Assembly (NCBI GenBank): GCA_031385045.1
Contig: JANNBC010000024.1
Span: forward strand, 256,001 to 320,000
Origin: a bacterium
Lineage (GTDB): Bacteria > Bdellovibrionota_C > UBA2361 > CALJRW01
DNA: 64,000 bases
Direction of reading: 5' to 3'
The notes under the pieces were generated by a model. That model made no database searches. It worked only from the letters and a program-made list of their open reading frames with translations, and had not been told where the DNA came from. Each line of letters starts with the position of its first letter. The stretch's first letter is position 1. Position numbers and translations under genes: made by a program. Positions 5,641-41,997 of the stretch are shown piece after piece.

Positions 5641-6672
5641 TTACTCCTGAAAAGACCTAGCATATTTTAAGATCCGATTAATTTCCTTAATCTTTATCTT
5701 AAGCTTACGCTTTTGTTTGGCATTAGTTAGAACTAAAACTCTATTTACGAGTTTAGTTTTCTGTTTTTTAAGCTTGATCAGCTCTTCCGTATCCCAAGAC
5801 TCTAATCCACAAGCGGATAAAGATGAATTACAATCATAACGCTCACAACCATTAGGAATTTTAATAATTCTAAACTCGGCCAATGATGTCACAGCAATTA
5901 GCACATCTTCCCCGTAGCTACATCCAGATTGTGCACCACGCGACGTTGTACAACGACCATTACTAGGTCCCACATCAGTCAATGTTTCTCCATTAACAAC
6001 CAATGAAGTTGTTGGATTTGTTAAAACCACCAATCTTCCATTGCTATCAGAAACTGGCTTCCATAAGAAGCGTGATAGATCACTATAAGGACTAGCAAGG
6101 CAAACTCCTGGATCTTCTTCTACTTCTTCCTCAATTGGTTCTTCCTCAATTGGATCATCAAGCCCTAAGCTTGCGCCACAAATACTAAATAAAGTTTCAA
6201 TTGAATCAATAAATTCTGCTGTTAACTTACTTTCTGTTAGTAACTTAATTTCTGGCGTCTCCGGGCCAGAACTAAAACTAATAATTGCCTTAGCCGTTAA
6301 AGCTAAATTAACTAAATCCCTAACTTTAGTTGGCCGAATATCTGGGCAGGCTGTTTTGATATATCCTTCAGCAATAGATTCTGGAAGACCACCATAACAA
6401 AATCCCGCAATTGCCATTATCGGATTAAAAGAGTCACTTGTTACATTACCAAGTTTAGCGCTAAGCTCATTATAAGTAAGCAATAACCCTTCAATCTGCA
6501 CACGATTATCTCGCTGATGAAGGGCCACTTGAATCGCCTCTCGATTATCTGCAACCATCAGGATATCTGAAAAATTTGATTGTGGAATTGATTTGCAAAA
6601 ATTCGTAATATCTTGAGCAAATGCTGGAGTTGAAGCTAGTAAAACTAAGAGTAAACCTGTTAGAAATTTCAT
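5641..6672 (-). CDS. Secreted Cys-rich two-domain hypothetical protein
   Basis: Signal peptide MKFLTGLLLVLLASTPAFA; 10 Cys; acidic linker DDPIEEEPIEEEVEED; FLWKPVSDSNGRLVVL segment; Lys-rich C-terminal helix. Confidence 0.75.
   Translation of the reverse strand: MKFLTGLLLVLLASTPAFAQDITNFCKSIPQSNFSDILMVADNREAIQVALHQRDNRVQIEGLLLTYNELSAKLGNVTSDSFNPIMAIAGFCYGGLPESIAEGYIKTACPDIRPTKVRDLVNLALTAKAIISFSSGPETPEIKLLTESKLTAEFIDSIETLFSICGASLGLDDPIEEEPIEEEVEEDPGVCLASPYSDLSRFLWKPVSDSNGRLVVLTNPTTSLVVNGETLTDVGPSNGRCTTSRGAQSGCSYGEDVLIAVTSLAEFRIIKIPNGCERYDCNSSLSACGLESWDTEELIKLKKQKTKLVNRVLVLTNAKQKRKLKIKIKEINRILKYARSFQE
6124..6153. repeat. 15-bp tandem duplication encoding PIEEE x2
   Basis: TTCTTCCTCAATTGG repeated twice back to back. 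Confidence 0.85.
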
Positions 6673-6767
6673 ATGCAAATTAGTAGTAAAATAACCTTAG
6701 CTACTAATCAGCTCAGAACTTGTTTTTGCTTCTTAAAAAACCAAATAATATCTAGTTATTTTAAGTT

Positions 6768-7364
6768 CTAACTATCTGATTTTACTATTAATTCACCAGA
6801 GGAGTTAAAATACTTTTGAAAATTCGTCACACCCTCAATTAAATATTGCCCATCTTTAGTTCCAATAATCCAGGCAGGAGACTTACTCACCTGATACTCA
6901 GCTGGAGGCTCAGCAGAAAAAAATAATCCACCGCCCCGACCATCAACAAGTGCCGTCACTTTGTTCATTGCTGGGGAACTAAAATCCTTGCCCACCGCAT
7001 ATATTGGGCCTAAGTCATAATCATGCTCAATGGCAAATTCTAGAAAACTATTTATTTCAGTGAAAAAATGATCTTGATCATTGGCATTAATAATCATACC
7101 TAACCAACTAACCTGATAGCGACCTCCTGGTGGTGGAGTTATCGTTGGTGTTTGCGGACTAGCCTGACCTTCGGCCGTGCTTGGCACTTCTTGTTGATTA
7201 GGATTCGGTGCTACTATTGGATTAGTTTCCTGCTCTACTTTACGAGGATTAAATACATTCATATCATAATCTTTACCAAAGAACCCCTCTTCTTCAGCAA
7301 AAACTACAGAACTAGCGCCTAGAACAAGCAAAAGTAGCGCTAATTTAATAGAAAATAGTTTCAT
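6768..7364 (-). CDS. Exported protein, remote TrbC (F-type pilus assembly)-like
   Basis: Likely start is the ATG at 7364, giving signal peptide MKLFSIKLALLLLVLGASSVVFA. Pro/Gln-rich linker. C-terminal LVDGRGGG...EYQVSKSPAWII...GQYLIEG resembles the TrbC Y-x-I-x-x-VPA-hhh...I-x-G motif. Confidence 0.5.
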   Translation of the reverse strand: MKLFSIKLALLLLVLGASSVVFAEEEGFFGKDYDMNVFNPRKVEQETNPIVAPNPNQQEVPSTAEGQASPQTPTITPPPGGRYQVSWLGMIINANDQDHFFTEINSFLEFAIEHDYDLGPIYAVGKDFSSPAMNKVTALVDGRGGGLFFSAEPPAEYQVSKSPAWIIGTKDGQYLIEGVTNFQKYFNSSGELIVKSDS

Positions 7365-8901
7365 TATTAACTGGTAAATAACAAACAGGGCAAGCTTGAA
7401 CAAAGCGATAGTGAGCAGAAACAAAACGCTCTCCATCAACATTCACATTAGCATCTTTGTATTGATCGCCGGTAATCTTCGGAAGATAATATTCACCTTC
7501 ATTGATACATCCCTTATTACTACCACGAGCGACGTTACGACTACGGTCAAAAGGCTTATTACGATTTAAATCTAAAAACTGTAAGCGATCACGTTTATGT
7601 TCTCCTTGATCTTGAAATTGAACATCATGAAACTTACCTATTTTCTCCCCCTGCTTTGGGTTCAACATACCAAGCTTCTCTCCCAAAAGATAGGCTAATT
7701 TAATTGAGACATAGTCACGCTTTGTTGCTGCTTGTGTTGAATATAAAGTTTCTTTGTCAAAATTAAAGGGCACAGAAAATAACCTTCCATAAAAAGCAAT
7801 ATTACCTGGGGCACATTTATATGTTCCACCAGCACTATTACTGCCACCTTGAGAAATCAACGGATTTAATTTATCTTTAAAAATAGTATCGAGACTTCCC
7901 AGATCTTGTTTCTGCTGACGACAATTATCCATTTGATCCTCTGCTTGTAGCACCTTCTGTAAATCAGAATCAGCATAAGCATACTCTGCAAATCTCATTG
8001 TTAAGAGCGCCTCAGGGAATTCACTAAACCAAATTGGAACAGCATTCTTCACAGGCACCCAAGAGTTAACTGCTCCTTGATGAGTCCATATGTCTTCAAA
8101 GTAATCTTCTCGATTGGTTTTATTGCGATCAAATCCAGTTGGATAGACGTGCATTTCCATAAAGCGACCATTATTAGAAATTCGGTGTCGGAGTGTTGCA
8201 TCATCCATGGAGACCTCCTTACCATCAATCTTAACTTTAAGTTTCTTAAATTCTTTTATGGAATCAATAACACCTTTGTCACGAACTATTTCTTTTTGTA
8301 AAGTGTCTTTAATCTTCTGAACATCTTGATCTTCCATTTTAAAATCTTTATCGAATCCAAACTTGTTACCGACTGCCTTCAAACGATCGATCTCACCTTT
8401 TGCTGGTTCGGTTGAGCCTCCCTGCGCCTTAACCAACATTCCTAAATGTGAAAATTGTTCCGCTTTGGCTTTCAGATTTTTGACAATTTCCGCAGTCATA
8501 TATTCAGTGTCATAGGGAGTCTGAGTTGTTTCTGTTAATTGAAAAGGAACATAATAACTATAAAGCGGAATAGAATCGTCTAGTAAGCCCGCATAGGTAT
8601 CATAATCACGGCAGAGGTAAAAATTATATCCAAGGTTAACTTGCAGATTACGTGCTAATTTACAACCTCCTCCAGTAACTCTTTTTCTACCTAAACAACT
8701 GTTTGGATCATCAGTGTAATTTTCCAACATTCGATTTGCGGCGGCTGTAAAGGATGCTTCCACTTCAGAATTACCAACCTTACTAATTAATCGATCCGTT
8801 TTACTGAGTGGTGTGCCGGGAGTAATTTCAACCTTTCCCGTCTCTGCCTGAAGCATAAAAGGAATAAAAAGCGCTATAACTAATAATCTAAAAACCTTCA
8901 T
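7345..8901 (-). CDS. Exported protein, remote TraU-like
   Basis: Signal peptide; 8 Cys. Collinear TraU-like motifs: YYVPFQLTETTQTP, GRFMEMHVY, WFSEFP, CAPG, DRLQF, terminal RFVSAHYRFVQAC. Confidence 0.6.
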   Translation of the reverse strand: MKVFRLLVIALFIPFMLQAETGKVEITPGTPLSKTDRLISKVGNSEVEASFTAAANRMLENYTDDPNSCLGRKRVTGGGCKLARNLQVNLGYNFYLCRDYDTYAGLLDDSIPLYSYYVPFQLTETTQTPYDTEYMTAEIVKNLKAKAEQFSHLGMLVKAQGGSTEPAKGEIDRLKAVGNKFGFDKDFKMEDQDVQKIKDTLQKEIVRDKGVIDSIKEFKKLKVKIDGKEVSMDDATLRHRISNNGRFMEMHVYPTGFDRNKTNREDYFEDIWTHQGAVNSWVPVKNAVPIWFSEFPEALLTMRFAEYAYADSDLQKVLQAEDQMDNCRQQKQDLGSLDTIFKDKLNPLISQGGSNSAGGTYKCAPGNIAFYGRLFSVPFNFDKETLYSTQAATKRDYVSIKLAYLLGEKLGMLNPKQGEKIGKFHDVQFQDQGEHKRDRLQFLDLNRNKPFDRSRNVARGSNKGCINEGEYYLPKITGDQYKDANVNVDGERFVSAHYRFVQACPVCYLPVNNETIFY

Positions 8902-11017
8902 CTTGTTTGTCCTTTAATACATCTGAAATCTTTCGATCATCAGATAAAATATCTAGAATCTCATTAAGCTTTTGTGGTACGGCTAAATCGGAGTTACTAC
9001 CCTTTCCAAAAGATTGAATTAATTTTTTAATCCGTTGCTCTTTCATTTTTGGAGTTGCACCACTATTAATAAATTCATAGGCCTCCCTTAGAGGACTCTT
9101 CTCGCCTTCCGCGTTAAATGCTTCTGGGATCCTCATCTTAAATTGCGCTTGAATCAGTTTCCATCGTTCGTAGGCTGACTGGTTATTTTTAAAGAGCGGG
9201 GTAATAATTTTTACTACATCTTGATCGAAAAATTTCGCAGTGCTTGGGTATAACTGAATCCTACCGATACCTTTAATTCCTTTTAAAATTGAATCTATGT
9301 TAAGTGATCCAGCTTCAAGGGACTCTTCTACTAATTGATAAGCATGACGGTCCGTCTTAAAGAGCGCTAAATTAATCTCTAGATACCCTTTAAAGAAGAG
9401 ATCAGTCAGAGGCGCTAATTCAGTTGCTAACTCTTTAAAAAGCTTTACTTTCACTGGCTCGTTAGTAGTTAAGACAACTCTCCGCTTGTCATCAAAATCT
9501 TCTTGGGTAAGAATATTATACTTTGAGCTAGCTAAAATTGTTCGAATCAAATCAGAACTTATAAATTCTAAATAAACCTTAAAAGTTGGCTTGGGATTAT
9601 GCTTTTCAACAAATCCAACCACTGTATCAACAATAAATGGTAATCTAGATAGTTGATCTTCAGGAAGATTAACTGGAAATAAGAAAAGACCATTACCCTC
9701 AGTATTAGCTAAGGAATAAAGAATTAAGCGATCGGCCTCGATTTTTTTTAAAACATCCAAGAAAGTTTGCTCCAGTTTTTCTCCTAAATATTCCAACTTA
9801 TAATTGAAAATAGTTTCGACAGAGGTGCCCGGTACAAATAATTTTTGTTCAGCAAAACTATTTTCAACATTTGCCAAAGACGATGAAAAACGAAGTAATT
9901 TATCCCCATCTATATCAATTGGAAGATCTATGAAAGTTTGATACATATGTGGAGGGGTTTCACCTTTTTCTAGGAATTTCTTTTCCGCAGCTTGATTATA
10001 CTGATGAACTTTCATGATATCTTGAAGATTAATCTCATGACTGTATGTATCCTGAGGTGACTTATCTAAAAGCATCCCAGAAGCTTTCCAGGCCTCTAAG
10101 TTTAATAACTTACCAAGCTCACTTTGATATAGACTTAGAGTCTGTAAATCAAGCAACATTAAACCATCTACTTTAAGCGAAGTGAGACACTTAACAAGAT
10201 CATTAGATTTATTTAAATCTTCTATTATTTTTACTAAATTTGACTCTAAGAAACGGAGGGAAGACAGCATAATTGCAATATCACCCTCTCCCTTAAGTGA
10301 AGCCTGATTAAAATCTTCGGCATATTTTTTAAAGAATTGATTTAGCCGCGCACTCTCTCCTAGGGTAATTTTATATCCCGAATAATTTAAATCTAGCTTC
10401 AGGGTGTCTTCGTCAACAAAACTTACAAAATCTTTATTAATTCTTAATGATTGAAGATACTCTTGCACCTTTTGTTTTAAAGCTGGAACTTTAAAATATA
10501 TTTTTCCGTTACCAGCAACTTCATTCCAGAAAAAATTAGGAAGCTCCCCTGCAGAAAATTTATCAAATAAAATCTGAGTAAATTGAGGGTAATAAGCCTG
10601 AATTATTTCGGTATTAAAACTAACATACCCATGCCCCTTTAACCCAGAAATAGCTTCTCTTAAAGAATTAATTTGGATCAGGCGACTAAACAAAGCCGAG
10701 GCTTGCGGTTGTAAAAATGCCACAGGTACAACAATATTTTTTGCAAGTGGTGTAAAATCTTTATAAATAAAAGTTTCTCGATTGCTAACTTCGGTAGCGA
10801 TAGTCTTAGATTTTTCTTCTGCTACTTGCTCTGCATTTGAATTGGGATCAAGTAAGACTTGCTCTTTTGGATCGAGCTTATCGGAAACTATTTCGCTTAC
10901 CTCTTCTTTTATAACAGGCTGAGTGGGTGCTGGTTTTTTACTATTCCCAGAAGTTACCCAGATGATATAAATAATTACGATACCACTTAATATTGCTAGT
11001 TTTTTCAATGAACTCAT
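8888..11017 (-). CDS. Large hypothetical protein with N-terminal membrane anchor
   Basis: 709-aa ORF; N-terminal TM segment LAILSGIVIIYIIWV; its 3' end overlaps the start of the next (traU-like) gene; no family recognised. Confidence 0.75.
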   Translation of the reverse strand: MSSLKKLAILSGIVIIYIIWVTSGNSKKPAPTQPVIKEEVSEIVSDKLDPKEQVLLDPNSNAEQVAEEKSKTIATEVSNRETFIYKDFTPLAKNIVVPVAFLQPQASALFSRLIQINSLREAISGLKGHGYVSFNTEIIQAYYPQFTQILFDKFSAGELPNFFWNEVAGNGKIYFKVPALKQKVQEYLQSLRINKDFVSFVDEDTLKLDLNYSGYKITLGESARLNQFFKKYAEDFNQASLKGEGDIAIMLSSLRFLESNLVKIIEDLNKSNDLVKCLTSLKVDGLMLLDLQTLSLYQSELGKLLNLEAWKASGMLLDKSPQDTYSHEINLQDIMKVHQYNQAAEKKFLEKGETPPHMYQTFIDLPIDIDGDKLLRFSSSLANVENSFAEQKLFVPGTSVETIFNYKLEYLGEKLEQTFLDVLKKIEADRLILYSLANTEGNGLFLFPVNLPEDQLSRLPFIVDTVVGFVEKHNPKPTFKVYLEFISSDLIRTILASSKYNILTQEDFDDKRRVVLTTNEPVKVKLFKELATELAPLTDLFFKGYLEINLALFKTDRHAYQLVEESLEAGSLNIDSILKGIKGIGRIQLYPSTAKFFDQDVVKIITPLFKNNQSAYERWKLIQAQFKMRIPEAFNAEGEKSPLREAYEFINSGATPKMKEQRIKKLIQSFGKGSNSDLAVPQKLNEILDILSDDRKISDVLKDKQDEGF

Positions 11018-11239
11018 GGTTTTAATTTAACTCAGTTCAAAAACTTAAAACAGTTACTAAGTTCGACTATCTCCTAAAAAATTTCCCTCTCTCTCCTCAC
11101 TCATAAATTAAAGATTTAAGATTTTAAACATTTAGATAACAGACCAAACAAATCGATGGTTAATCACCTATAACTTTGATCCACTAAATCTCCACATTTA
11201 AAATCCCAAGCTTACTCAGCTTGTCTCTGTAAATTAATC

Positions 11240-12637
11240 TTATGAACCTGGGGTCCATCCTCTCTGTAACGGTCCCCAATACCTAGAAGCTCCCAGCGGA
11301 TCCCCGTTAGAATTAGTCCCCGAGATTACTCCATCTTGCTTAACCAAGTTAGAAGTAATTGATAGCGCTGCGTTGGCATTAGTATAAGGGTTAGCTAACT
11401 GGTCATGGGTGAAAGCATCACTTTGTAATCCATAATTAGTTGCATCTGCTGTTGATAATTGAAATAAGCCTCGAGAACCTGTCCCGAACTTACCAACATC
11501 ACCAACATCACCGATATTATATGAAGATTCCTTACCAGCTAACTCCGTAAAGTATCTGGCCCAAGACTCTGAGCTCCCATCAATACCATACTTAGCTCCA
11601 TCGGCCGGAACATATCCATTTAAATCTGAGTTCTTAACTTGCTCATTCATATAAGCGAACAAGTCATCTTTACTTACATTACCAGAGGAAGAGACCGGCA
11701 TAGATCCGTCACCTCCGGTATACTGACTATAATCAGTATTAATTCCACCAGTTCCCAATCCAGTTGTTCCCGTGGTTCCAGTTCCCAATCCAGTTGTTCC
11801 AGTACCCGGTTGGCCTGGTTGCATTGCCTGATTCTGCTGATTCATCGCCGACAGAGTATTGACTACTTGCCCCGCCATAATCAAATTAGAATTTCCAGTT
11901 AATGCACCAAGAGTTGTTAAGATAGTTCCTAACCAATTACCATTGGAGTTATTACTTCCTCCAAACATTCCAAAAATCCCACTTCCGGCACCACCATTCA
12001 TGCCTAACAATCCAGCGATTCCTGCACCAGTATTACCAGCACCAACATTATAGTTACCAAACATTTGCCCTGCAATATTACCAACATTACCCATATTGCC
12101 AAAGTTGTTCATTCCAGGGATTGATTGGTTGTATGCAGTTGGAGCAAGATAAGGAGCAATACAATCCCGATAATCAGAATTATATGGATTACATTGAGGA
12201 TAACGATCTTGCGGATTATTCATTGCTGCGGAAATCCCACCAGCATTCATTGATGTAAACATCTGAGCAATATTACTTACATTTCCACCTAAGAACATCG
12301 AAAGACTTCCTAACAACATTCCTAAAATTGGATTATCCCCCATAACATCAGTAATTCCGACATTACTAATAGTTTGTGTAAGCCCAGCTGCAGCATTCAT
12401 GTTACCGCCTAGCTGGCTAATTGACTGAGCTTGCTGAATACTATTGGGATTTAAATCTAAACGATCATGATCTTGGTTTTGCTGTTGCAAAGCTCGCTGA
12501 CAAATTTTTTGTCCTAAGGGATGATTGGCACAGGGGTCGCCATTCTGGGCGAAGACTACTCCAGAGGGCTGAAGCAATGAGGCTAGTAGACAAACTACTA
12601 CGAAACTATTAGTGGAGAATATTAATCTTTTGTTCAT
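11240..12637 (-). CDS. Secreted Gly/Asn/Met-rich protein with C-terminal lytic transglycosylase (SLT/lysozyme-like) domain
   Basis: Signal peptide. C-terminal ELAGKESSYN (catalytic E-S), SRGLFQLS and LANPYTNANAA are SLT motifs. Long low-complexity Gly-rich stalk. Confidence 0.75.
   Translation of the reverse strand: MNKRLIFSTNSFVVVCLLASLLQPSGVVFAQNGDPCANHPLGQKICQRALQQQNQDHDRLDLNPNSIQQAQSISQLGGNMNAAAGLTQTISNVGITDVMGDNPILGMLLGSLSMFLGGNVSNIAQMFTSMNAGGISAAMNNPQDRYPQCNPYNSDYRDCIAPYLAPTAYNQSIPGMNNFGNMGNVGNIAGQMFGNYNVGAGNTGAGIAGLLGMNGGAGSGIFGMFGGSNNSNGNWLGTILTTLGALTGNSNLIMAGQVVNTLSAMNQQNQAMQPGQPGTGTTGLGTGTTGTTGLGTGGINTDYSQYTGGDGSMPVSSSGNVSKDDLFAYMNEQVKNSDLNGYVPADGAKYGIDGSSESWARYFTELAGKESSYNIGDVGDVGKFGTGSRGLFQLSTADATNYGLQSDAFTHDQLANPYTNANAALSITSNLVKQDGVISGTNSNGDPLGASRYWGPLQRGWTPGS
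11748..11800. repeat. Intragenic 23-bp direct repeat with 30-bp period, encoding GTTGLGTG x2
   Basis: CCAGTTCCCAATCCAGTTGTTCC at 11748-11770 and 11778-11800. Confidence 0.85.
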
Positions 12638-12717
12638 TTGAAAACCCTAACTAAAAAAACCCTTCAATAAATGTTATGAGCAAAATGCTCAATCTGATGC
12701 ACCACTTAAGGGATTTT

Positions 12718-13506
12718 TCATTTAAAATATGGATGAAGTATACCGGATGAATGGTAGTCCTCATCATAGTTCTTTAAAGCATTAATCCCCCGATCAACAA
12801 AGAATGCTTCAGTTGTCGTGCGAAATCTCATTGGCAGGCATTCCACCCCTAAACCCTTAGCAACACGATGTATTTCAGTATTTTTATCTGGATAGTAGAC
12901 TAAAAGATCAACTTTTTTTCCTAAAAATTCACTTACATCAACCTCGTTTGGTACTTTTTCAGGAGAAATAAATAGTAAATCTTGCACTGGAGTATTTCCA
13001 GATTGGTTATTCGTTTTGGAAATATTTTTTCTAATTGTACTAGAGCTAGTACATTTCGGAAGCGGAATTGCTTGCTCCATTTGGCTCACTTGAGCTTTTA
13101 ATTGAGGAAGGTATTCCTCTCTAACATACTGCCGAACAGCATCCTGATTTAAGGTAAATTTTTTATAAGAATTCTTTATTACAAGCGGATCTGGGTAATT
13201 AATCCCAGAATTGCCTTTTACATGACCAAAGATTTTAAGTTCAGAGATTTCTTGCTCCCACGGATTTTTAGGATGCTTACCAAGCATTCTCATAATATGA
13301 CGACTATCAGGCTTAACACCATATCTTTCAGCCGATTCGTTTAATTCTTCTTGGGTAAACCGATACTCACTAATTTGTTTTTGTAGCTGTGCTTGCTGTT
13401 CATAGGTCAGGTTCTTAAGAATTTCCCTGGGATCTCCCTGCGCAAATAAAGAATTCACTGTTAGGAAGATAGTAAGTAGCACTTGGACAATTCGTAATCT
13501 CATCAT
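12718..13506 (-). CDS. Exported protein, remote TraW-like
   Basis: Signal peptide; G...YPDPL, QDLLFIS and VAKGLGVECLPMRF resemble the TraW motifs G...EPD-h, L-h-FI and L...GI..VPARV, in order. Confidence 0.5.
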   Translation of the reverse strand: MMRLRIVQVLLTIFLTVNSLFAQGDPREILKNLTYEQQAQLQKQISEYRFTQEELNESAERYGVKPDSRHIMRMLGKHPKNPWEQEISELKIFGHVKGNSGINYPDPLVIKNSYKKFTLNQDAVRQYVREEYLPQLKAQVSQMEQAIPLPKCTSSSTIRKNISKTNNQSGNTPVQDLLFISPEKVPNEVDVSEFLGKKVDLLVYYPDKNTEIHRVAKGLGVECLPMRFRTTTEAFFVDRGINALKNYDEDYHSSGILHPYFK

Positions 13507-21857: not shown

Positions 21858-22409
21858 CTAATCGAGCTTAAGTAATTGACTACGAACTCGCTGACTTAGC
21901 GGATACTCAGAAAGCCAGATGCCTAAATAATACTGGGCAAATTTGGAATTATTAATTGTTGGAAAAGTCTGATTGGGGTTGCTCAGTGTTAATCCCTGAT
22001 TGGTGATATAGGTTAAAAAATACTGATCATCTCGATCAACATCACTGTAATAATTGCTAACCTGATCTATTTCTTTCTGGTACTCAGTAAATATAAAATT
22101 GGGGTTCTTTTTTAAAGTATCAACTGCACCATCAACAATTCTTTTTTTATCAATTTTACGGTGATATTTAAAATGAAGAAATTTAGATATTTGTGGATCG
22201 AGTACATTTCCGGTTAAATTAGGCTGATCAACATAGAGCCCAATAGAATAAATATCCATAAACAAATAAGTAAAATCTGATTTACCTACTAAATAAAACT
22301 GGACACCAGAGCGTTCAATAGTTTTAGGATAACAACTAACTTCGGAACAAAGCTCTTCAGCCTGAGTGTTAATTGCCATTAATAAAAATAAAAAAAATAA
22401 TCGAATCAT
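21858..22409 (-). CDS. Exported chalcone-isomerase-like (fatty-acid-binding) protein
   Basis: Signal peptide; G...YLFMDIYSIGLY, F.YHRKI, FAQYYLGIWLS.....RSQLL; operon context. Confidence 0.75.
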   Translation of the reverse strand: MIRLFFLFLLMAINTQAEELCSEVSCYPKTIERSGVQFYLVGKSDFTYLFMDIYSIGLYVDQPNLTGNVLDPQISKFLHFKYHRKIDKKRIVDGAVDTLKKNPNFIFTEYQKEIDQVSNYYSDVDRDDQYFLTYITNQGLTLSNPNQTFPTINNSKFAQYYLGIWLSEYPLSQRVRSQLLKLD

Positions 22410-23137
22410 TAATTTGTCTTTAAACTGCCTAAGCCTCCATCAACAGCAATTATTTGCCCAGTAATCCATGTTGCTCGATCGGAGATTAAAAAATCTACTA
22501 AATTTACTAAATCATCGGTTGTTCCAAGACGTTTTAAGGCGTGCATTTTTTCAGAAACCTTAAGGCTATTTTCATTATTAAAAATAGATTCAGTCATTGG
22601 CGTGCGCGTAAGCCCCGGAGCAATAGCATTAAAGCGAATGTTTTTTCCTGCATATGTTGCCGAGGCGGAAAGTACTAAGCCATTAACAGCGCCCTTAGCA
22701 GCAGAGATTGCTTCGTGATTTGGGAGTCCAATTTGTGAGGCCGCAGAAGTAAATAAAATCACACTTCCACCATTTGGAGCTAAAAATCTTCCAGCAGCAC
22801 GAACAGTCGCAAAGGCAGTTGTTATATTCTTACTAATTACTTGCTCATATTCCAGTGACGACACTAAATGTGCCGGTTTAAGCAGAACAGATCCACAACA
22901 ATTAACCACTGCATCAATCCTACCAAAAACATCAGTAGCATTTTGAAAAACACGATTAACCTGCTCAAAATCACTACAATCTGCGACAGCATAATTTGCT
23001 AGCAGCTTATTGGCGAGACTAATTAGCTCCGCCTCATGTCGAGCTACTAAAAAACATTTCCAACCAGTAGCTGATAATCTTTGGCTTAAATCACTTCCAA
23101 CTCCGCCAGTAGCACCAAGGATAATTACATTTTTCAT
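22409..23137 (-). CDS. SDR-family oxidoreductase
   Basis: GATGGVG, NAIAPGL, ITGQIIAVDGG; catalytic Tyr replaced (HEAISAAK). Confidence 0.9.
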   Translation of the reverse strand: MKNVIILGATGGVGSDLSQRLSATGWKCFLVARHEAELISLANKLLANYAVADCSDFEQVNRVFQNATDVFGRIDAVVNCCGSVLLKPAHLVSSLEYEQVISKNITTAFATVRAAGRFLAPNGGSVILFTSAASQIGLPNHEAISAAKGAVNGLVLSASATYAGKNIRFNAIAPGLTRTPMTESIFNNENSLKVSEKMHALKRLGTTDDLVNLVDFLISDRATWITGQIIAVDGGLGSLKTN

Positions 23138-23142
23138 TGGAG

Positions 23143-23595
23143 CTAATATTTATTAAGTTTTGTTTTAATCCATTTGATAATTATGGACAGCACTGGGATT
23201 CTTTCATAAATAAAATCTCCAACATCATAGTAATCACGTTGATATTTTACTAGTTGAGTTTGAGGATCAAAGACTAAATGAGAAATACCTGGAACACTAA
23301 AAAGCTTCCCATGATTAAGCTTAGGGGCCTGCAAATGCATTGTCCAAAAGGCAGAAATTTTTTGCCCCTCACAAATAAAATCAGTAAATTCAAATTTTAT
23401 CTCCTCGACTGGCTGATAAATATGACTATAGTATGCTTTAATTTTGGATCCCCCACTAAGATCTACTAGCGGATCAATAAAATGAGCCTCAGAATGATAA
23501 AAAGTATCTACTAAATTAATATTTGTGGCACTTAGATTTGCAAAAAAATACTTAATTTTTTCTATCAGTGGATTTTCAATTACGCCGTTAGACAT
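23143..23595 (-). CDS. SnoaL-like / NTF2-family protein
   Basis: FY...AHFIDP, W.M, YQRDYYD.....YERIPVL. Confidence 0.85.
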   Translation of the reverse strand: MSNGVIENPLIEKIKYFFANLSATNINLVDTFYHSEAHFIDPLVDLSGGSKIKAYYSHIYQPVEEIKFEFTDFICEGQKISAFWTMHLQAPKLNHGKLFSVPGISHLVFDPQTQLVKYQRDYYDVGDFIYERIPVLSIIIKWIKTKLNKY

Positions 23596-25663
23596 TTGCC
23601 GACCTTTGAGAAAAGTATTTTTGATTTAAAACCTGCCGATCTTCACTACAAAGAACTTGATTGTTCGGCCTAGTCAATGTCAGGTGTAAAACATTAAGAG
23701 TTCTAGTTGCAAATGCAGATTCACAATATGCCAGGTAATAGTTCCAAGCTCGAATAAAACGTTCATCAAAACCTAACTTAAAAACCTGATTTAAATTTCG
23801 ATTAAAGCGCTTACGCCATTCCGCCAAAGTTGGAGCATAATGGGGGCCAATATTAGTAATCTCCTCAATTTCGAGTTCTGAATTTTTACGCAAGGCAATT
23901 TGTAATGCTTCTAATGAAGGGAGTAAAGAGCCTGGAAAGATATGTTTTTGAATCCAATCACAACGATTTTTTAGACGTTCAAAATATTGATCGTGAATGG
24001 TTATTACTTGCAATGCAATTAATCCATTGGGCTTAAGTAACTTTTCACAGGTTCTAAAAAAACTTTGATAATTTTTATGACCAATAGCCTCAAGCATCTC
24101 GATTGAAACTATCTTATCAAATTGACCGGTAACCTCCCGATAGTCACAGAATTTAATTTCAACTAAATGCTCTAGCTTTGCTTCCTTCACTCGCTCCTTT
24201 GCCAAATTAAATTGCTCCTGTGAAATAGTGATACTTGTCACATGGCAACCAACTTGTTTCGCTAGAGTAATTGCGAAAGAGCCCCAGCCACTACCAATTT
24301 CTAAAACATGATCAGCCTTAGTAATCCTTGCTTTCCTAATTAAAGAATCAATCTTATTTGCTTGAGCCGCCTCTAGGATAGTGCATTCCGGACTATAAAG
24401 TGCAGAAGAATACATCATGCTAGAATCTAAGAAAGTTTTGAAGAGATCATTACTTAAATCATAATGAGCCGAAATATTCTTCTTGGCACCAGCTAAGGAA
24501 TTAAAACGAAAGAGATGTCTCAAAAATTCTACCTTATCAAAAAAATAGTTAATGATGCGGTTTCTCTTTTCAATTTTTTCTTTATTAGCAATAAAATAAT
24601 CAACTACAGCAGTTATATCTCCAGTTTCCCAAAGTTTATCGGTATATGACTCCCCTAAGCCAATTGCACCATCGCGAACTAGTCTCCAAAAAAACTCATA
24701 ATGCTGAACTTGAATTTCCGCTTGAGGCAGTTGTTGTGCATCACCAAAAAATAAAATGCGATTATCTGGCAAAATAATTTTTAGAAACCCACGATCGAAT
24801 CCCCGAAACAACTTGATAATCTTATTTTGTGCCAAACTGTGTAAATAACTTGGAGGTCCAGTAAAAATAGTATGAGCACTGACTGGCTTAGGCTTTCTAA
24901 ATACTGGTAATTTTTTAATATAATACATCTTGGCCGCCTGATAGACTATCCTTGGATAAGTTAGACTTGCCGTCAGGGGAAACTTAACAAATATTTTTAA
25001 TAAATTTATAGTATTAAACTCGGCTCCCTCTCCCCAAACTCTAGAATAAAAATCTACCTTAACTTGCCTATCCTTCTCTCGCAGAACATTAATCTTAATA
25101 TCTAGTTGTTCCTCTGGCTCTGTTAACCAAAAATCATACATACCATCCATTGGATAAAAGGGTGAAACATGAAAGGATTTGGGTACAGTATAATGTTTAG
25201 CATATTTAGACTTGTCATCTAAACTTAATTCTTGGTGTAATAAGTAGAGGTGGCGCTCCGAAAAAGTATTATTCACTTCGGAAACAACGTAGATCAGTTC
25301 ATCTACCTTATTGTAACAGTAATAAAAACTTACCGGATTAAAAACATAATTAAAGTACCTGGCACTTGTAATTAAAACGATGCGCTCAATCTGCTGATTT
25401 AAGTTATTTTTGGATAAGTAACTTAATACTTTTTCTTTAATTGTTAATCCAGAATTATCTAGATAATCTTGGTCGAAAATAGCGGCCACTCTTTTTTTAT
25501 TATATCCAAAAATCCAAGAATTAAAGCTAGGTAATTCATCTAAGTCTAGCGCATAGAAGTAGACAGGATAGGCGAAAGTATGATCAACGGGACCAGTGCG
25601 ACTGTGCATCACCCTACCAGCATAAATCTTTGATCGTGGCTTAGAAGCTAATAAACTAGCCAT
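23588..25663 (-). CDS. Fusion of DUF1365 (UfaO-like) and cyclopropane-fatty-acyl-phospholipid synthase-family methyltransferase
   Basis: N-terminal DUF1365 motifs H.R..P..H.F.Y, FNPVSFYYC, EVNNTF.ERH.Y, KSFHVSPF. C-terminal CFA motifs GLGESY, NISAHYDLSNDLF, LEIGSGWG, FDKIVSIEM, YLAYCE. Confidence 0.9.
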   Translation of the reverse strand: MASLLASKPRSKIYAGRVMHSRTGPVDHTFAYPVYFYALDLDELPSFNSWIFGYNKKRVAAIFDQDYLDNSGLTIKEKVLSYLSKNNLNQQIERIVLITSARYFNYVFNPVSFYYCYNKVDELIYVVSEVNNTFSERHLYLLHQELSLDDKSKYAKHYTVPKSFHVSPFYPMDGMYDFWLTEPEEQLDIKINVLREKDRQVKVDFYSRVWGEGAEFNTINLLKIFVKFPLTASLTYPRIVYQAAKMYYIKKLPVFRKPKPVSAHTIFTGPPSYLHSLAQNKIIKLFRGFDRGFLKIILPDNRILFFGDAQQLPQAEIQVQHYEFFWRLVRDGAIGLGESYTDKLWETGDITAVVDYFIANKEKIEKRNRIINYFFDKVEFLRHLFRFNSLAGAKKNISAHYDLSNDLFKTFLDSSMMYSSALYSPECTILEAAQANKIDSLIRKARITKADHVLEIGSGWGSFAITLAKQVGCHVTSITISQEQFNLAKERVKEAKLEHLVEIKFCDYREVTGQFDKIVSIEMLEAIGHKNYQSFFRTCEKLLKPNGLIALQVITIHDQYFERLKNRCDWIQKHIFPGSLLPSLEALQIALRKNSELEIEEITNIGPHYAPTLAEWRKRFNRNLNQVFKLGFDERFIRAWNYYLAYCESAFATRTLNVLHLTLTRPNNQVLCSEDRQVLNQKYFSQRSANV

Positions 25664-26910
25664 TAGATAAGTGCCTTAACTTTAAAATGACTAGCTAAGT
25701 TATTGGCTGAGACAACTGCATCTTCATGGAACCCATAGCCCAAATAGCTTCCACAATAAAAAACATTGGAGCGACCATTAAGAGATTTAACTTGTCCCTG
25801 TGTAATTAAGTTTTCACTAGTAAATAAAGGATGATAATAATCAAATTCTTGAATAATTTTATCTGGTGCAATAGTATGGTTAGGACTTAGAGTTACTAAA
25901 TATCGCTCTTTAGTTGTTAAGCCCTGCAAGCGATTCATATCATAAGTTACTGAAAGGTTTTGCCCATCTTTAGTTTCTTCAGCATTATAATTCCAAGAGG
26001 CCCAAGCACGGGAGTTTTTTGGCAAGACAGAAATATCCGTATGGAGCACAGTCCGGTTAAAGTTATATTGCCACTTTGAAAAACAGTATGACTCTTCTTT
26101 GGAAGGATTGCTAAAAATCGGGAGGACTTGATCAGCGTGAACTGCAAAAATTAAATAATCAAATTTCTGTTCGCTGTCTTCAGTTTTAACAGTGACGCCA
26201 ATATCTCCTCTAGTAACATTTTCTATCCGAGCATTTAAAATAATCTCCCCGGAGAATGTTTCTTTAAATTTTTTGACGTACTCTTGACTACCACCAACAA
26301 CAGTTTGCCAGCGCGGTCGATCTTTTAGTGAAAGTAGGCCGTGATTCTTAAAGAAGTTCAAAAAAGTGAATGCTGGAAACTGCAACATGTCCTCGCTTGG
26401 TGTTGACCATATGGAGGCTCCAATTGGCAAAACATAATCATAAATTAATTCGTAACTATATTTTTTTGATTTTAAATACTCACCGAGTGTTAACCCTAAC
26501 AAGCCATTACCAATCAAATCTTGAGTGGAGTTTTTGCAAAAGGCTTTTAATTCTAGTAAAAATCGATAAAATTTAGGATTAAAGAGATTAAGCCGATCGG
26601 CAAAAAAACCATTTAAGCCCGTTCCAGCATAGGCTAATTTTCGCGATTTAGAATGAAATGAAAAGGACATATCTGAATAGCGAATGGGGACGTCCAAGGC
26701 ATTCAGAAATCTGGTAAATGTAGGGTAAGTCTGATCATTTAAAACAATAAAGCCTGTATCGACAGCTAGTCCAGGTTTAATTTCAATTGTATTAGTGTGA
26801 CCCCCCAGATAGGCATTAGCCTCAAAAATTGTAACATTATAATCCTTCTGTAGCAGGTAAGCTGAAACAATCCCTGCTACACCTCCTCCGATGATTGCAA
26901 CTTTTCTCAT
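25663..26910 (-). CDS. FAD-dependent oxidoreductase/desaturase (UfaD/RSP1091-like)
   Basis: IIGGGVAG, LGGHTNT, VDTGFIVLN..TYP, SDMSFS, AWASWNY, YGFHED. Confidence 0.88.
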   Translation of the reverse strand: MRKVAIIGGGVAGIVSAYLLQKDYNVTIFEANAYLGGHTNTIEIKPGLAVDTGFIVLNDQTYPTFTRFLNALDVPIRYSDMSFSFHSKSRKLAYAGTGLNGFFADRLNLFNPKFYRFLLELKAFCKNSTQDLIGNGLLGLTLGEYLKSKKYSYELIYDYVLPIGASIWSTPSEDMLQFPAFTFLNFFKNHGLLSLKDRPRWQTVVGGSQEYVKKFKETFSGEIILNARIENVTRGDIGVTVKTEDSEQKFDYLIFAVHADQVLPIFSNPSKEESYCFSKWQYNFNRTVLHTDISVLPKNSRAWASWNYNAEETKDGQNLSVTYDMNRLQGLTTKERYLVTLSPNHTIAPDKIIQEFDYYHPLFTSENLITQGQVKSLNGRSNVFYCGSYLGYGFHEDAVVSANNLASHFKVKALI

Positions 26911-27929
26911 GTCTGCTTTGGTTTAAATAAATAATGGCTAACTAGCCACTCTTGACCATCACGATATCCAAACAATTCGGCGCAAGCCAAAAAGAAAATC
27001 AGCCAGCGACGATACCAAAGTTTAGCTGATTTTCTGCCATATGTCTGCTCTAAGATTGGCATTACTAAATGCTTATTCTGTTTAATATTATTCGCCCAGG
27101 CATTGGCAGTTTTTTGATAATTAGTCCCAGAGACATCCCATTGCTCTGTGATTTCTAAATCTTGATCATATTGATAAAATAACTTCTTACTTGGCATAGT
27201 TCCACCTGCAAAAAAATATTTAGCCATCCACTGATCTTCTCGATGCTCATCAAAAAAATAGGTTAATTTTCGATGACAAAAAATATGAACAAAAAGTAAG
27301 CCTTGCGGGTCAAGCCACTTAGCAATTTTCTTAAATAGCATTGAGTAATTACGCAGATGTTCAAACATTTCAACCGAGACAATTCGGTCAAAGGTCTCAC
27401 TAAGCTCTAAATCATTAATATCCTTGGTAATCACTTGTAAATTACTAAGCCCTCTAGCCTCAGCAGTAGCCAAAATAAATTCTCTTTGAATTCTGGAATT
27501 AGACACAGCAGTAACAAGAGAATCAGGAAACTGCTTGGCTAAATAAAGAGAAAGTGAACCCCAACCACATCCTAGTTCCAAAATTCTGTGTCCATTTTGG
27601 ATTTGGGCGCGGGTTGCAATTTCAGCCAAAGAATCCAACTCTGCCTCTGCCAAGGTCTGAACTCCAGGAAAAAAAGTTGACCCGCTGTACTTTAAATTTG
27701 GACCCAAAACATTGATGAAAAACTCATAGGGCAATTCATAGTGTTGCTGATTTGCTTCCTTACTAGCTAAAGATATTTGTCCAGACTGTAAATTTGCCAA
27801 ACTTTCGGCAATTTGATTCTGCTGTTGATTCTCCTTTGCAAGTCGTTTTTCCAATAAACTTCTAATCCCATAGCGAATAATGCTATCTGGTATAGGTAAA
27901 TTTTCAACAATTTCAGTGCTTAAGCTCAT
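26907..27929 (-). CDS. SAM-dependent methyltransferase, CFA-synthase/CmaS family
   Basis: ANQQHYELP, LKYS, LELGCGWGS, VSVEMFEH, WMAKYFF.GG.MP, ACAELF. Confidence 0.9.
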   Translation of the reverse strand: MSLSTEIVENLPIPDSIIRYGIRSLLEKRLAKENQQQNQIAESLANLQSGQISLASKEANQQHYELPYEFFINVLGPNLKYSGSTFFPGVQTLAEAELDSLAEIATRAQIQNGHRILELGCGWGSLSLYLAKQFPDSLVTAVSNSRIQREFILATAEARGLSNLQVITKDINDLELSETFDRIVSVEMFEHLRNYSMLFKKIAKWLDPQGLLFVHIFCHRKLTYFFDEHREDQWMAKYFFAGGTMPSKKLFYQYDQDLEITEQWDVSGTNYQKTANAWANNIKQNKHLVMPILEQTYGRKSAKLWYRRWLIFFLACAELFGYRDGQEWLVSHYLFKPKQT

Positions 27930-27947
27930 GATAAATCTTTATATAGA

Positions 27948-28724
27948 CTAAAACCATGGGAAAAACTTACTAGTTTTTTGTTGATAATCTCGATATAAAT
28001 CACCTTTACTAATCAAAGCCTGTTTTTCAGAAGGCGGGACACCTGTTACATAAAGTAATAAAATTAACATTAATATTGGAGATAAAAGTGAGACTAACTC
28101 TCCCGAGGTACCCAATGCAAATAATGGATAACTAAGCCAAATAATCCATTCAAAAAAATAATTTGGATGACGAGAATATTTCCAAAGACCTAAGTCACAT
28201 ACTGCTCCCTGACGGTTACCAAGTGTTCGAAACTTTGCAAGCTGTGAGTCGGCAAGACTAACTCCTTGATAGCCAATAAAAAAAATAGCCAGTCCTAAAT
28301 AATCTGAGTAAGCAAACTGACTTCGCTCGAAAATATAATGATATGGGATAGCTAAAATCCCAGCCATTACAACCTGGGCTAAAAATAAGAAATAAAAGTT
28401 TTGTTTACCCTTTGTACCCCATTTCTTTCGAAGATTCTGATAACGACGATCTTCCCCTACTTTTAAAATTCTACCAAATAAAATTAAATGTCCTAATCTT
28501 AATGCCCAAATAAAAATTAATACAAAAATTATTACATTTCGAGTCGATGCCGGATGTTGTAAAAAACCAAAGACACCCCAAGATAGAACTAACATCGTCC
28601 ATCCAAAGTCTGCTAAATCCCCCTTAGCTTTTTTTTGAGCAATAAAATACAAAATATTTAAAACTAGTACCTGAGCAGAGATTAAGATCATCAAAGAACT
28701 ATTCATTTTTGAATCCATAAGCAA
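27948..28724 (-). CDS. DUF1295 / steroid 5-alpha-reductase-like membrane protein
   Basis: EDRRY, ADSQL, GLWKYSRHPNYFFE, YQQKTSKFFPW. Confidence 0.9.
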   Translation of the reverse strand: MLMDSKMNSSLMILISAQVLVLNILYFIAQKKAKGDLADFGWTMLVLSWGVFGFLQHPASTRNVIIFVLIFIWALRLGHLILFGRILKVGEDRRYQNLRKKWGTKGKQNFYFLFLAQVVMAGILAIPYHYIFERSQFAYSDYLGLAIFFIGYQGVSLADSQLAKFRTLGNRQGAVCDLGLWKYSRHPNYFFEWIIWLSYPLFALGTSGELVSLLSPILMLILLLYVTGVPPSEKQALISKGDLYRDYQQKTSKFFPWF

Positions 28725-29964
28725 AATAAATTGCCACTAAATAGCAAGTTGCTGGTATTCCAGCATAAAGAATAATTAATCCATTATTAACAATACTACT
28801 TTGAACTATCCCAGCTTGATACCCAATTAATTCTAAAATCGGAAAAGCGCAACCGGCAGCGATTGCTGCCGAAAGTTTTTTTGCTAAGGACCAATAACCA
28901 ATCATTTGAGCAGCAAGATTTTGCTGAGATTCCTTACTGCACTTTTCCGCAACATCTGCCTGAAGCGACGCTGGGACAATAATTGCACCACCAAGTCCAA
29001 AACTAGATAAAATAATAATTAGCAAATAATAATATTCGTCTCCCGAGCCTAAAAAAAGTACTGCCAAGAAAGACCCCGTCGATAAGCTTAAACTTTGCAA
29101 CCATGCTTTTAATTTACCAACTTTCTTAGTCCAGTAAATCCAAAAGGGCATAAAAATTAAGACTCCCAAGAAATACAAAAAAATAAACTGATTCCCTAAC
29201 TTACTAGCAAGAACATGATCAATATAAAAAAGAATCATTGCTCCCGATAAAGTAGATCCAAAACTTGTTAAAGCATATGTGATTAAAAGATTCTTAAATC
29301 CTGAATATTGCCATAAGCTTTTTAAGCTCTGACTTTTAACTCGTTCTTTATTTGATATTACGAACTTACTATCTGGTAAAAGATAGTAACAGATCAGGGC
29401 TCCTGTCAGCAAAATTATCGCATAAACCAAACCAGCCCAAAATAAATAACTGAAATCATCACTAGGTTTTAAATTTATTTTTTGAAAAAGTACTGGGAAT
29501 AAGGAAGCTATTACTGTTCCTAGTAGCAAAAATCCTTCACGTGTTCCTAGAATCTTAGTTCTTTGGTTCGTGTCTGAATCTAGACTTAGGCCCAATGTTT
29601 GATAGGGCACAGAGAAACAACTCCAAGAAATATAAAAGAAAATGGAAAAGAGCAGGAACCAAAGTAGTGGAGAAATTAACTGAGGAGGATTTGTAAGCGC
29701 GATAAAACTTACTCCTAAAGGAAGTGCAACAAGAACAATTAACTTTCTTTGAAAATCAGGAAAACGATCCACTAATCTGCCAATCAGAGGATCAAATATG
29801 GCATCAGCTATTCGAGTCAAAATAACAATAATACCAAACCAAAATGCGGACACTCCTAAGGTATCAACATAATATTTAGGAAGAAAAACATAATAGGAAA
29901 AGGCCACTGCCGAAAGTCCCAGTGCTGAGAAAGAGTAGAGCAATGACGTTTTTAAGATATTCAT
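28699..29964 (-). CDS. MFS transporter (GPH/MelB-like)
   Basis: RIADAIFDPLIGRLVDR, VPYQTLG, SLQADV; about 12 TM segments. Confidence 0.88.
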   Translation of the reverse strand: MNILKTSLLYSFSALGLSAVAFSYYVFLPKYYVDTLGVSAFWFGIIVILTRIADAIFDPLIGRLVDRFPDFQRKLIVLVALPLGVSFIALTNPPQLISPLLWFLLFSIFFYISWSCFSVPYQTLGLSLDSDTNQRTKILGTREGFLLLGTVIASLFPVLFQKINLKPSDDFSYLFWAGLVYAIILLTGALICYYLLPDSKFVISNKERVKSQSLKSLWQYSGFKNLLITYALTSFGSTLSGAMILFYIDHVLASKLGNQFIFLYFLGVLIFMPFWIYWTKKVGKLKAWLQSLSLSTGSFLAVLFLGSGDEYYYLLIIILSSFGLGGAIIVPASLQADVAEKCSKESQQNLAAQMIGYWSLAKKLSAAIAAGCAFPILELIGYQAGIVQSSIVNNGLIILYAGIPATCYLVAIYFAYGFKNE

Positions 29965-39948: not shown

Positions 39949-40825
39949 GATGACTTAATTGCTGAGATTCAATTAGATGATCACAATTTATTCCAACCAT
40001 TGCTTCGCCTAAGTTGGCACTGACCTCGGCAAGTATTTCAGGATCGTTAAAGTGTGTAGTTGCTTTAACAATTGCTTTCGCGCGAGCTTCAGGATTGCCG
40101 CTTTTAAAAATTCCAGAACCAACAAAAACTCCATCCATTCCTAACTGCATCATTAGAGCAGCGTCGGCTGGAGTTGCAATTCCACCTGCCGCGAAATTCA
40201 CCACAGGTAAGCGTCCTAATTTCTTAGTGAGCAGTAAAAGTTCATAAGGAGCGCCAAGGTTTTTGGCATAAGTCATCACTTCTTCATCACGCATTTGAAT
40301 CAAGGCATTGATTTCAGTCTGAACGGTACGAGCATGTTTAACAGCTTGTACCACATCTCCAGTACCAGCCTCACCTTTAGTTCTAATCATCGCAGCACCT
40401 TCTCCAATCCGACGAAGAGCCTCAGCCAGTCCAGTACATCCACAAACAAATGGCACTTTGAATTTGTTTTTCAAGATATGATATTGATCATCGGCTGGAG
40501 TTAAAACTTCACTTTCATCAATATAATCGACACCTAAGGCTTCCAAGATTTGTGCTTCCACAAAATGACCGATGCGACATTTAGCCATAACTGGGATGCT
40601 AACTGCATTAATAATATCTTTAATCATGTCAGGATCTGACATTCTAGCAACTCCACCATTGGCACGAATATCTGCTGGGACTCTTTCTAAGGCCATCACT
40701 GCAACAGCACCAGCTTTCTCGGCAATACGCGCTTGATCAGCATTAACAACATCCATAATCACTCCACCCTTTAACATTTGGGCTAGGCCACGATTTAGAA
40801 TTATTTGATTATCTTGATTGTTCAT
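39938..40825 (-). CDS. pdxS: Pyridoxal 5'-phosphate synthase lyase subunit
   Basis: [50 protein letters not shown]. Confidence 0.97.
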
Positions 40826-41997
40826 AAAAATTTCTGTGTTTCGTAAATTCTTTTATGTTTTTTAATGCCAGCAAGTCGGTAACGTGCAGTTGAAGTTCTT
40901 GGACATTGGAAATCTTGTCCGTCTTGCGGCAAAGAAAAATTATAGATTTTTTTATACTCTTCGTAATTAAGTTCCTTACGATTTTTAAATAAATTTTGGT
41001 GAAATTCTTTAGATAGATAATTCTGATATCCACTAACAACTGTACCAACAAAGAATTCCCCAATACTGCCGGAACCATAGCTAAACAAGCCAACATCCTG
41101 GCCTCCAAGATCTGATTGTTGATGATCTAATAGACTACAAATACCTTGATACAAAGATGCCGTGTAGCAATTCCCTGTTTGACGATTATACATTAAACTT
41201 GGGTGAATTTTTTTTACAATATCAGCATCGCCAACTTCCACTTCAGACTTTTTCGCCAGTCGCACAAAGGCCTTTTCGGCAATTGTAGAAAAAGGTAAGT
41301 GAAAACAAAATGCAGCAAATTGATTAAACTCAGTTGGAACTTTGGCACAATAATCATCCCAGGCATGAAGGAAAGATTTCAAATACAAACGTACAGAGTA
41401 TTGACCATCAACAAAAGCTTCTGTCCGATAATTTGGTCTCCAAAAATCCATAGCATCTTCTGTATAGACACCACTTTGCAAACCAAGCTTCATAATCTGA
41501 GGATTAGTGGAGATTAGCATGGCACAAGCACCAGCACCTTGAGTTGGTTCCCCTGGATTTCCAAGACCATAACGAGCAATATCTGAAGCAACGATTAAGG
41601 ATTTATTATTAGGATTTAGTTCGGCATCTTGCAAGGCACTACGCAGTGCAAACGTTGCTGAATAACAAGCTTGTTTTAACTCAACTACTCGACAATCTGA
41701 TCCCAAGCCTAATAATCGATGCAAGTACATACCAGCAGACTTTGATTGATCAATGCCACTTTCCGTAGCAAAGTATAAAGTTTTGATCGTAGATTTATCA
41801 AGATCTTGCAGGATCTGCCAAGCAGCATTGGCTCCTAAGGTTACAGGATCTTCGTCAGGCTCAGTCACCGCCATTTTTTCCTGGCCTAGCACATCATAAT
41901 ATCCTGCTGGATCTTTCTCGTATAAACTAGCTAAAGTTTTTAGATCGAGAAAATAACTCGGACAGTAACATGCGATGCGATCAATTCCTACAGACAT
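40822..41997 (-). CDS. mvaS: Hydroxymethylglutaryl-CoA synthase
   Basis: [16 protein letters not shown] (catalytic Cys), [38 protein letters not shown]. Confidence 0.94.

Follow-up and report, generated by a model that had tools for sequence, protein, structure and literature searches.

Why does the chromosome of an uncultured bacterium carry, among ordinary housekeeping genes, a group of genes that look like stray parts of the F mating pilus? The window analysed here (the whole 64,000-nucleotide stretch G000:C54:256001-320000, from a genome, G000, of 2.83 Mb and 95% completeness) holds a block of six genes in which a first-pass annotation saw TraW-, TraU- and TrbC-like members of an F-type type IV secretion system (T4SS). 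After comparison with 124 genomes of the phylum, all of one class, we favour, with modest confidence, the reading that these three genes (W, U and C below) encode distant relatives of F mating pilus parts and form the pilus-extension module, in the periplasm, of an F-type T4SS that belongs to the host and is used for contact-dependent protein delivery. The class, a group of uncultured Bdellovibrio-like bacteria, is probably UBA2361 of GTDB's Bdellovibrionota_B; PMC13200544 describes how Bdellovibrionota has been split. The three genes are as follows.

12718-13506, minus strand: TraW-like periplasmic protein, 262 amino acids (aa); assigned by fold, linkage, fusion and complex model.
7345-8901, minus strand: TraU-like Cys-rich periplasmic protein, 518 aa; assigned by profile-profile match.
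6768-7364, minus strand: periplasmic protein resembling F-type TrbC, 198 aa counted from the ATG at 7364, in an open reading frame (ORF) that opens at 7442; assigned by a weak profile match and context.

The W, U and C proteins

The motifs of F proteins quoted in the first-pass annotation are present in the sequences, and for U the assignment to TraU was borne out by profile comparison. A class profile of 89 U sequences matched 14 plasmid TraU proteins in hhalign with a probability of 89.3 and an E value of 2.1e-6 over 123 columns, its score of 53.4 comparing with 14.0 for the reversed control and with at most 25.4 in 30 shuffles, and its four cross-comparisons stayed at background. The same profile reaches proteins of G023 and G024 (E 4-6e-5), the only genomes with a protein over the Pfam TraU cut-off (2/124). 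The canonical Tra alignments came from 14 annotated plasmid or island regions; comparisons with single F proteins in hhalign were non-significant, and diverse plasmid alignments were required. Scans of Pfam and NCBIfam, made with single sequences, gave no Tra match for the six genes, 33 U-like relatives, 48 alignment members or 56 relatives of W, C and U, the exception being one weak TIGR03756 match (E 0.014). A fold search with the TraU-like model (pLDDT 73) returned generic helical matches only (Z up to 5.7), a sequence search of the PDB no TraU, TraW or TrbC chain, and a search of viral contigs with F TraU no match. One genome, G060, holds three U-like genes (L055, L076), two of which seem to lack a W or C neighbour.

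For the other two proteins the sequence matches are weaker. The C class profile matched plasmid TrbC with a probability of 5.6 and an E value of 0.0068 over 82 columns (score 26.1; best of 30 shuffles 16.6), and it scored 23.4 against TraF through a signal-peptide match, so the TrbC match is weak; linkage to U and W and the complex model described below agree with it. The W profile scored 15.6 against canonical TraW, not significant beside a best shuffle of 17.5, and the proposed TraW identity is thus carried by fold, linkage, fusion to TrbC and the complex model rather than by sequence comparison. In the model of W (pLDDT 83.5), residues 169-254 match thioredoxin-like chains with Z of 3.7-4.8 (best match Z 4.8, rmsd 3.3, 74 residues aligned, a modest score for a common fold); this C-terminal thioredoxin-like domain lacks a CxxC motif, and a conserved HxxG segment lies near residue 95. 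The Atlas gave no usable match for W. Up to four W-like paralogues occur in G113 and three in G048.

Two observations join W to C. Their domains are fused in one protein in G023 and G024, and a complex model of the two window proteins scored 0.69 against 0.06 for the best control, with contact agreement of at least 71% and partner pLDDT of at least 71. The mark used for such scores is reached by 116 of 157 solved pairs and by 2 of 215 mismatched pairs, counts that are approximate for the alignments used here. The modelled interface sets W residues 90-114 against the C-terminal domain of the TrbC-like protein, which is the geometry reported for the F system, where the interaction of the TraW N-terminal domain with the TrbC C-terminal domain is described as essential; some systems are said to fuse the two (PMC7555446). 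The model supports binding of W to the TrbC-like protein, short of showing it, and the HxxG segment is predicted to make the contact; this interface is a testable prediction for proteins that have no solved structure.

The three genes travel together across the class. The U profile matches 29 of the 124 genomes and the W-like profile 93, including 85 of 91 within the window's own order, and in about 19 of 30 loci returned the W-like, U-like and TrbC-like genes stand back to back (from ORF lists, with some genes cut at the locus edge). Of 14 wider loci, chosen mostly on weaker W matches, 12 contain the full trio and the other two are cut by a contig edge; for the 11 visible ones the outcome did not change when these loci were left out of the profiles. 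We therefore take the trio as the conserved unit. The earlier view of all six genes as one module is not supported; the genes at 11240-12637 and 8888-11017 sit here in this genus only. Nor is the F order W-U-C fixed in the class: U-C-W, C-W-U, one mixed-strand arrangement and U followed by the C-W fusion (G023, G024) also occur. The trio adjoins traL in G048 and a traF-like gene in G069 and G058, and in several relatives (again G069 and G058) it lies between gcvP and the traF-like gene. As the traF- and traG-like genes of G000 stand beside gcvP, where relatives keep the trio, the window trio has probably been relocated from that site.

A dispersed machine and its inheritance

The expectation of the first-pass annotation that the other parts would be encoded elsewhere proved correct: family searches located TraC and a coupling protein outside the window, and the machine is spread over four separate loci between housekeeping genes. 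About 90 kb from the trio, on the same contig, lies a core operon traL-E-K-B-V-C with a pilin-like gene (G000:C54:163410-174915), which also holds genes for two lipoproteins and for PH-, SH3- and M23-domain proteins. Its TraC/VirB4 ATPase is of F type (C54:167601-170342; PF11130, 53.6 bits against a cut-off of 28.1) and its TraB is over the cut-off for TrbI/VirB10 (54.5 bits); TraK_C (E 1.9e-6) falls 0.1 bit under the cut-off and TraV (E 0.0016) also under it, all in the F order. TraL and TraE have no Pfam match and are named from size and position before traK, being kept in 36/41 and 38/41 loci. The pilin-like gene matches the TrbC/VirB2 pilin family under the cut-off (E 0.0058), lies near traC in 13/41 loci and stands beside the coupling gene in G042. 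A single, fixed traB-traV-traC arrangement is shared by 40 of the 41 loci compared around traC.

A second contig carries a TraF-like gene (C5:25437-26510; hhalign 91.0%, E 1.1e-6 against four plasmid TraF) and a gene resembling TraG_N, the VirB6-like part (C5:20430-23819; hhalign 43.6%, E 2.4e-4 against three plasmid TraG; no match to Pfam TraG_N), both adjoining gcvP. The coupling protein, of VirD4 type and 792 aa, is encoded on a third (C46:14785-17163; PF02534, E 7.6e-38). In 16 of 20 loci (L239-L258) a second coupling-type (TraD/VirD4-like) ATPase gene and one for a membrane-anchored partner of about 690 aa (660-760 aa) lie between a gene for a 160-aa protein and the traL operon. Most of these parts escape standard profiles (with Pfam TraU, only 2 of 124 genomes give a match), and such systems are consequently undercounted.

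The distribution is that of a resident system. The TraC family occurs in 121 of the 124 genomes and in 73/73 of those of high quality, at one locus each. In a tree of 70 of the 121 class TraC sequences (lengths from 550 aa) with four plasmid or island TraC, the class sequences formed one group (support 0.85); 16 of 19 multi-member families came out monophyletic, compared with at most 3 in 500 label shuffles; the suggested check of congruence thus came out in favour of descent by family. As for synteny, the block recurs with its flanking genes in the congeneric genome G041, at 57-76% identity. The dN/dS ratio between G000 and G041 is about 0.06-0.14 for all six genes, a rough figure with dS near saturation.

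Neither the window nor the searches for mobility (MOB) families revealed a linked relaxase or integrase. Inspection of the window ORF lists found no integrase, relaxase, coupling protein, VirB4 or pilin, as first reported. MOBH was found in 0 of 124 genomes and MOBP, MOBQ and MOBV in 0 of 5; MOBF occurs in 6 of 124, never on the contig that carries traC; in four of the six it adjoins a separate TrwB-like gene. In G000 the MOBH, MOBF, MOBP, MOBQ and MOBV models gave no match although their positive controls responded, and the MOBC model none, without a positive control, while MOBT, MOBM and MOBB were outside the search. The MOBF elements with a TrwB-type pair, including those of both own-family relatives (L134-L137, L154-L161), look like mobilisable elements in their own right, for which the resident machine might serve as a vehicle. 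Some 3 kb away from the coupling gene, G000:C46:19949-35175 is an island beside a tRNA-like gene with integrase, primase-helicase and restriction-modification-like genes (translations read); the conserved neighbour of the coupling gene is a glycosyltransferase gene and not an integrase (four genomes).

A deeply diverged, chromosomally fixed F-type system, as first proposed, agrees with the near-universal TraC, the tree that follows families and the dispersed parts, and we are confident that the class has a host-owned, vertically inherited F-type T4SS.

The rest of the block and its setting

Besides the trio, the block contains three genes.

11240-12637, minus strand: secreted protein rich in Gly and Asn, with a lytic transglycosylase (SLT) domain at its C-terminus, 465 aa; assigned by Pfam SLT.
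8888-11017, minus strand: orphan with an N-terminal membrane anchor, 709 aa; sole homologue in G041.
5641-6678, minus strand: secreted protein with a Cys-containing module, 345 aa; assigned by module family.

All six ORFs are intact at the coordinates first given, and each protein has an N-terminal hydrophobic stretch (judged by eye). The flanks are glyS-hisG-MFS on one side and bcp-hisH on the other (translations read; MFS_1 by Pfam). There is no compositional shift, with GC of 0.34-0.42 per gene and third-position GC of 0.24-0.31 against 0.283 +/- 0.034 for 58 window genes, and promoter and terminator scans gave chance-level results only.

The SLT domain noted earlier is over the Pfam cut-off (E 2.4e-5). 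A search with the window query found it in 5/124 genomes, and among the loci compared the gene adjoins W, U or C in G000 and G041 only; the candidate role of a conserved VirB1 was rejected on these counts, and the protein looks like a genus-level passenger whose role would at most be that of a local, VirB1-like helper. The 709-aa orphan, whose ORF overlaps the traU-like start by 14 bases, has the G041 copy as its sole homologue (57% identity; dN/dS about 0.14) and no Pfam, NCBIfam or Atlas match. It was also tried as one of the two genes that G000 lacks, the second ATPase and its partner, and matched neither.

The Cys-rich protein had been seen as a stand-in for TraN, which we do not uphold: hhalign against TraN gave an E value of 0.19, and the gene is mostly unlinked to W, U and C. 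Its Cys module of about 85 aa (residues ~200-285), for which there is no Pfam family, occurs in 85 of 124 genomes in multiple copies; among its best 20 loci, U or C are neighbours in G000 and G041 only, and elsewhere the module is found near the trio in G096 and G013. The module has an FLWKP motif and usually forms the C-terminal part of lipoproteins that also carry an SNase-like domain (loci L164-L181). The Cys-rich gene is probably outside the T4SS, and together with the SLT gene and the orphan it looks like a genus-level, later insertion at the site.

Elsewhere in the window, 21858-29964 carries genes for cyclopropane-fatty-acid synthases, a DUF1365-like protein, an FAD oxidoreductase, an SDR and an MFS protein, an ordinary set, and 40822-41997 an HMG-CoA synthase-like gene between pdxS and hisIE, a hint of a mevalonate pathway (translations read in both cases).

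What the machine may deliver

In the explanation that we prefer, an F-type T4SS would have been fixed early in the class and then inherited vertically while its genes scattered over the chromosome. By the F paradigm, TraL, TraE, TraK, TraB, TraV and TraG would build the envelope channel and TraC would be the motor that assembles the VirB2-like pilin. Extension of the pilus would take place in the periplasm through W, U, TrbC and TraF, where the N-terminal segment of W would dock on TrbC's thioredoxin-like domain. Cell contact would come from the pilus, and the VirD4-type coupling ATPase would feed protein substrates by way of its class-specific C-terminal domain. Prey, hosts or competing cells would be the most likely targets of delivery. 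For the phylum, predation is plausible.

The coupling proteins of relaxase-less effector T4SS such as those of Xanthomonas, Lysobacter and Legionella recruit effectors through special domains or adaptors. The C-terminal domain of the coupling protein here (85 aa, no Pfam family) matches in 107/124 genomes, a few of the matches being free copies; in 15 loci drawn from secondary matches it is a free protein of 95-122 aa in 8 and part of a larger protein in 7. It also occurs in tandem in some coupling proteins and within unrelated proteins, among them a ClpX-like ATPase (L273; loci L259-L273). We infer a portable module for interactions, of the kind that recognition of a substrate or adaptor would call for. 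Protein delivery is favoured because the coupling protein has been kept and a relaxase is not recognised, and relaxase-less T4SS with a coupling protein are described as typically protein secretors (PMC4027160). A bolder version, which we put forward tentatively, is that the class owns a dedicated injection organelle derived from an F plasmid, in which a retractile F-like pilus is joined to a coupling ATPase whose portable domain, along with its free copies, chooses the proteins to be delivered; the organelle would serve as a core weapon or for contact with a host.

Several results weigh against the preferred reading. TraW is non-significant and TrbC weakly significant at the level of sequence, and Pfam TraU matches none of the 48 members of the U-family alignment. 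TraH was not found (PF06122 in 0/5 genomes; the two genes between traF and traG gave no match to a 3-sequence profile, though a diverged TraH may escape it), nor was TraN (PF06986 in 0/5 genomes; no match of a 9-sequence profile in G000). G000 is without the second coupling-type ATPase and its partner by profile and tblastn searches, the site being closed, so that this genome may have a reduced machine. In the TraC tree the families f1 (the window's own), f14 and f21 are broken, and the own order is not recovered. No substrate or effector has been identified, and since real components escape standard models a relaxase could too. Finally, a conserved cytoplasmic protein of 160 aa (G000:C54:175176-175688, L006:17177-17689) is encoded beside the core operon, usually divergent from the traL operon, and would point to DNA if it bound single-stranded DNA (ssDNA). 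It is single-copy in 114/124 genomes, 160-170 aa long in the class and about 55-68% identical in most, and has no Pfam match and a best E value of 0.5 in a PDB profile search; by eye it appears to consist of two beta-rich repeats.

That last protein is the natural starting point for the alternative that the same host-owned machine moves DNA, in chromosomal exchange, release or uptake, with an unrecognised nickase or none and with the 160-aa protein and the second ATPase handling ssDNA. We consider this unlikely, but it has substance: the gonococcal genetic island (GGI), the one chromosomal F-like exaptation known from the sources used here, exports DNA (PMC12857230, PMC3548315), F TraU is reported to be tied to DNA transfer, most relatives have two coupling-type ATPases, and the 160-aa protein is single-copy and well conserved across most of the class. 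According to PMC3548315, protein secretion had as of 2012 been shown for the MPF_T and MPF_I types only (MPF, mating pair formation). The F-like GGI, however, is described as exporting DNA with a relaxase (PMC12857230), of the MOBH family, which it requires and which none of the 124 genomes has; neither Pfam nor the PDB holds a sequence match for the 160-aa protein; and G000 keeps the machine without the second ATPase. An attachment organelle alone, in which a retractile F-like pilus would grip prey, host or surfaces without translocation, would account for the retention of the F-specific W, U, TrbC and TraF, reported as the pilus-extension set, and for the failure to find TraN and TraH; we judge it improbable, as an intact coupling protein, needless for a pure pilus, is kept across the class. 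To jobs other than protein delivery, DNA traffic or a pilus alone we give only a small chance. It is very improbable that the trio is an unrelated periplasmic complex with chance Tra likenesses: the window proteins and close relatives do lack direct Pfam and NCBIfam Tra matches and W is non-significant, but U matches TraU with cross-comparisons at background, is linked to the proteins of G023 and G024 over the Pfam TraU cut-off, and belongs to a trio that adjoins a traF-like gene (G069, G058) and traL (G048). An ordinary decayed integrative and conjugative element or integrated plasmid, which the spread of parts over at least four loci and the tRNA-linked integrase island ~3 kb from the coupling gene on C46 might recall, is scarcely credible, being largely refuted by one TraC locus in each of 73/73 good genomes and a family-following tree, and opposed by purifying selection, host-like composition and the coupling gene's conserved glycosyltransferase neighbour.

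Among known systems, the conjugative T4SS of type MPF_F (F plasmid, pYJ016 and pLPL; IncC/SXT and IncHI) resemble that of the class in TraC, the TraK/TraB/TraV core and the order traL-E-K-B-V-C (traL and traE named from size and position), in TraU, TraF, the coupling protein and W-U-C linkage, probably in TrbC and TraG_N, and in the TrbC-TraW fusion of IncC and IncHI, mirrored in G023 and G024. The class system differs in having no recognisable relaxase, TraN or TraH, in being chromosomal, dispersed, single-copy and vertically inherited, in its extra fixed genes (for two lipoproteins and PH-domain, SH3 and M23 proteins), and in a TraU enlarged to 460-700 aa and a coupling protein with a class-specific C-terminal domain. 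It would work like an F pilus machine and has several hallmarks of the F apparatus, but falls outside the conjugative elements, with no relaxase recognised, no single mobile locus and no patchy distribution. The GGI of Neisseria gonorrhoeae is likewise a chromosomal F-like machine serving its host, but is described as one island with a MOBH relaxase and ssDNA export, whereas the class genes are core, scattered and without MOBH (0/124). Relaxase-less effector T4SS (the bacteria-killing VirB/D4 of Xanthomonas and Lysobacter, and Legionella Dot/Icm) are similarly fixed in the chromosome with a coupling protein and no relaxase, and differ in that no effectors are identified here. The T4SS of Patescibacteria (PMC12102498) is also tied to a whole uncultured lineage, but by the title of that study is homologous to monoderm conjugation machinery and not F-type. 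In the open-access literature, supplements and subscription journals being outside that scope, we found no publication on an F-type T4SS of this class.

Almost every F-type machine known is a mobile conjugation system, and the fixation of one in every good genome of a class, with no recognisable relaxase, points to ancient domestication. The system also gives a concrete handle on the lifestyle of these uncultured bacteria. If the injection organelle that we tentatively propose is real, it would be the first F-type T4SS devoted purely to protein delivery, and it would define the lifestyle of the lineage.

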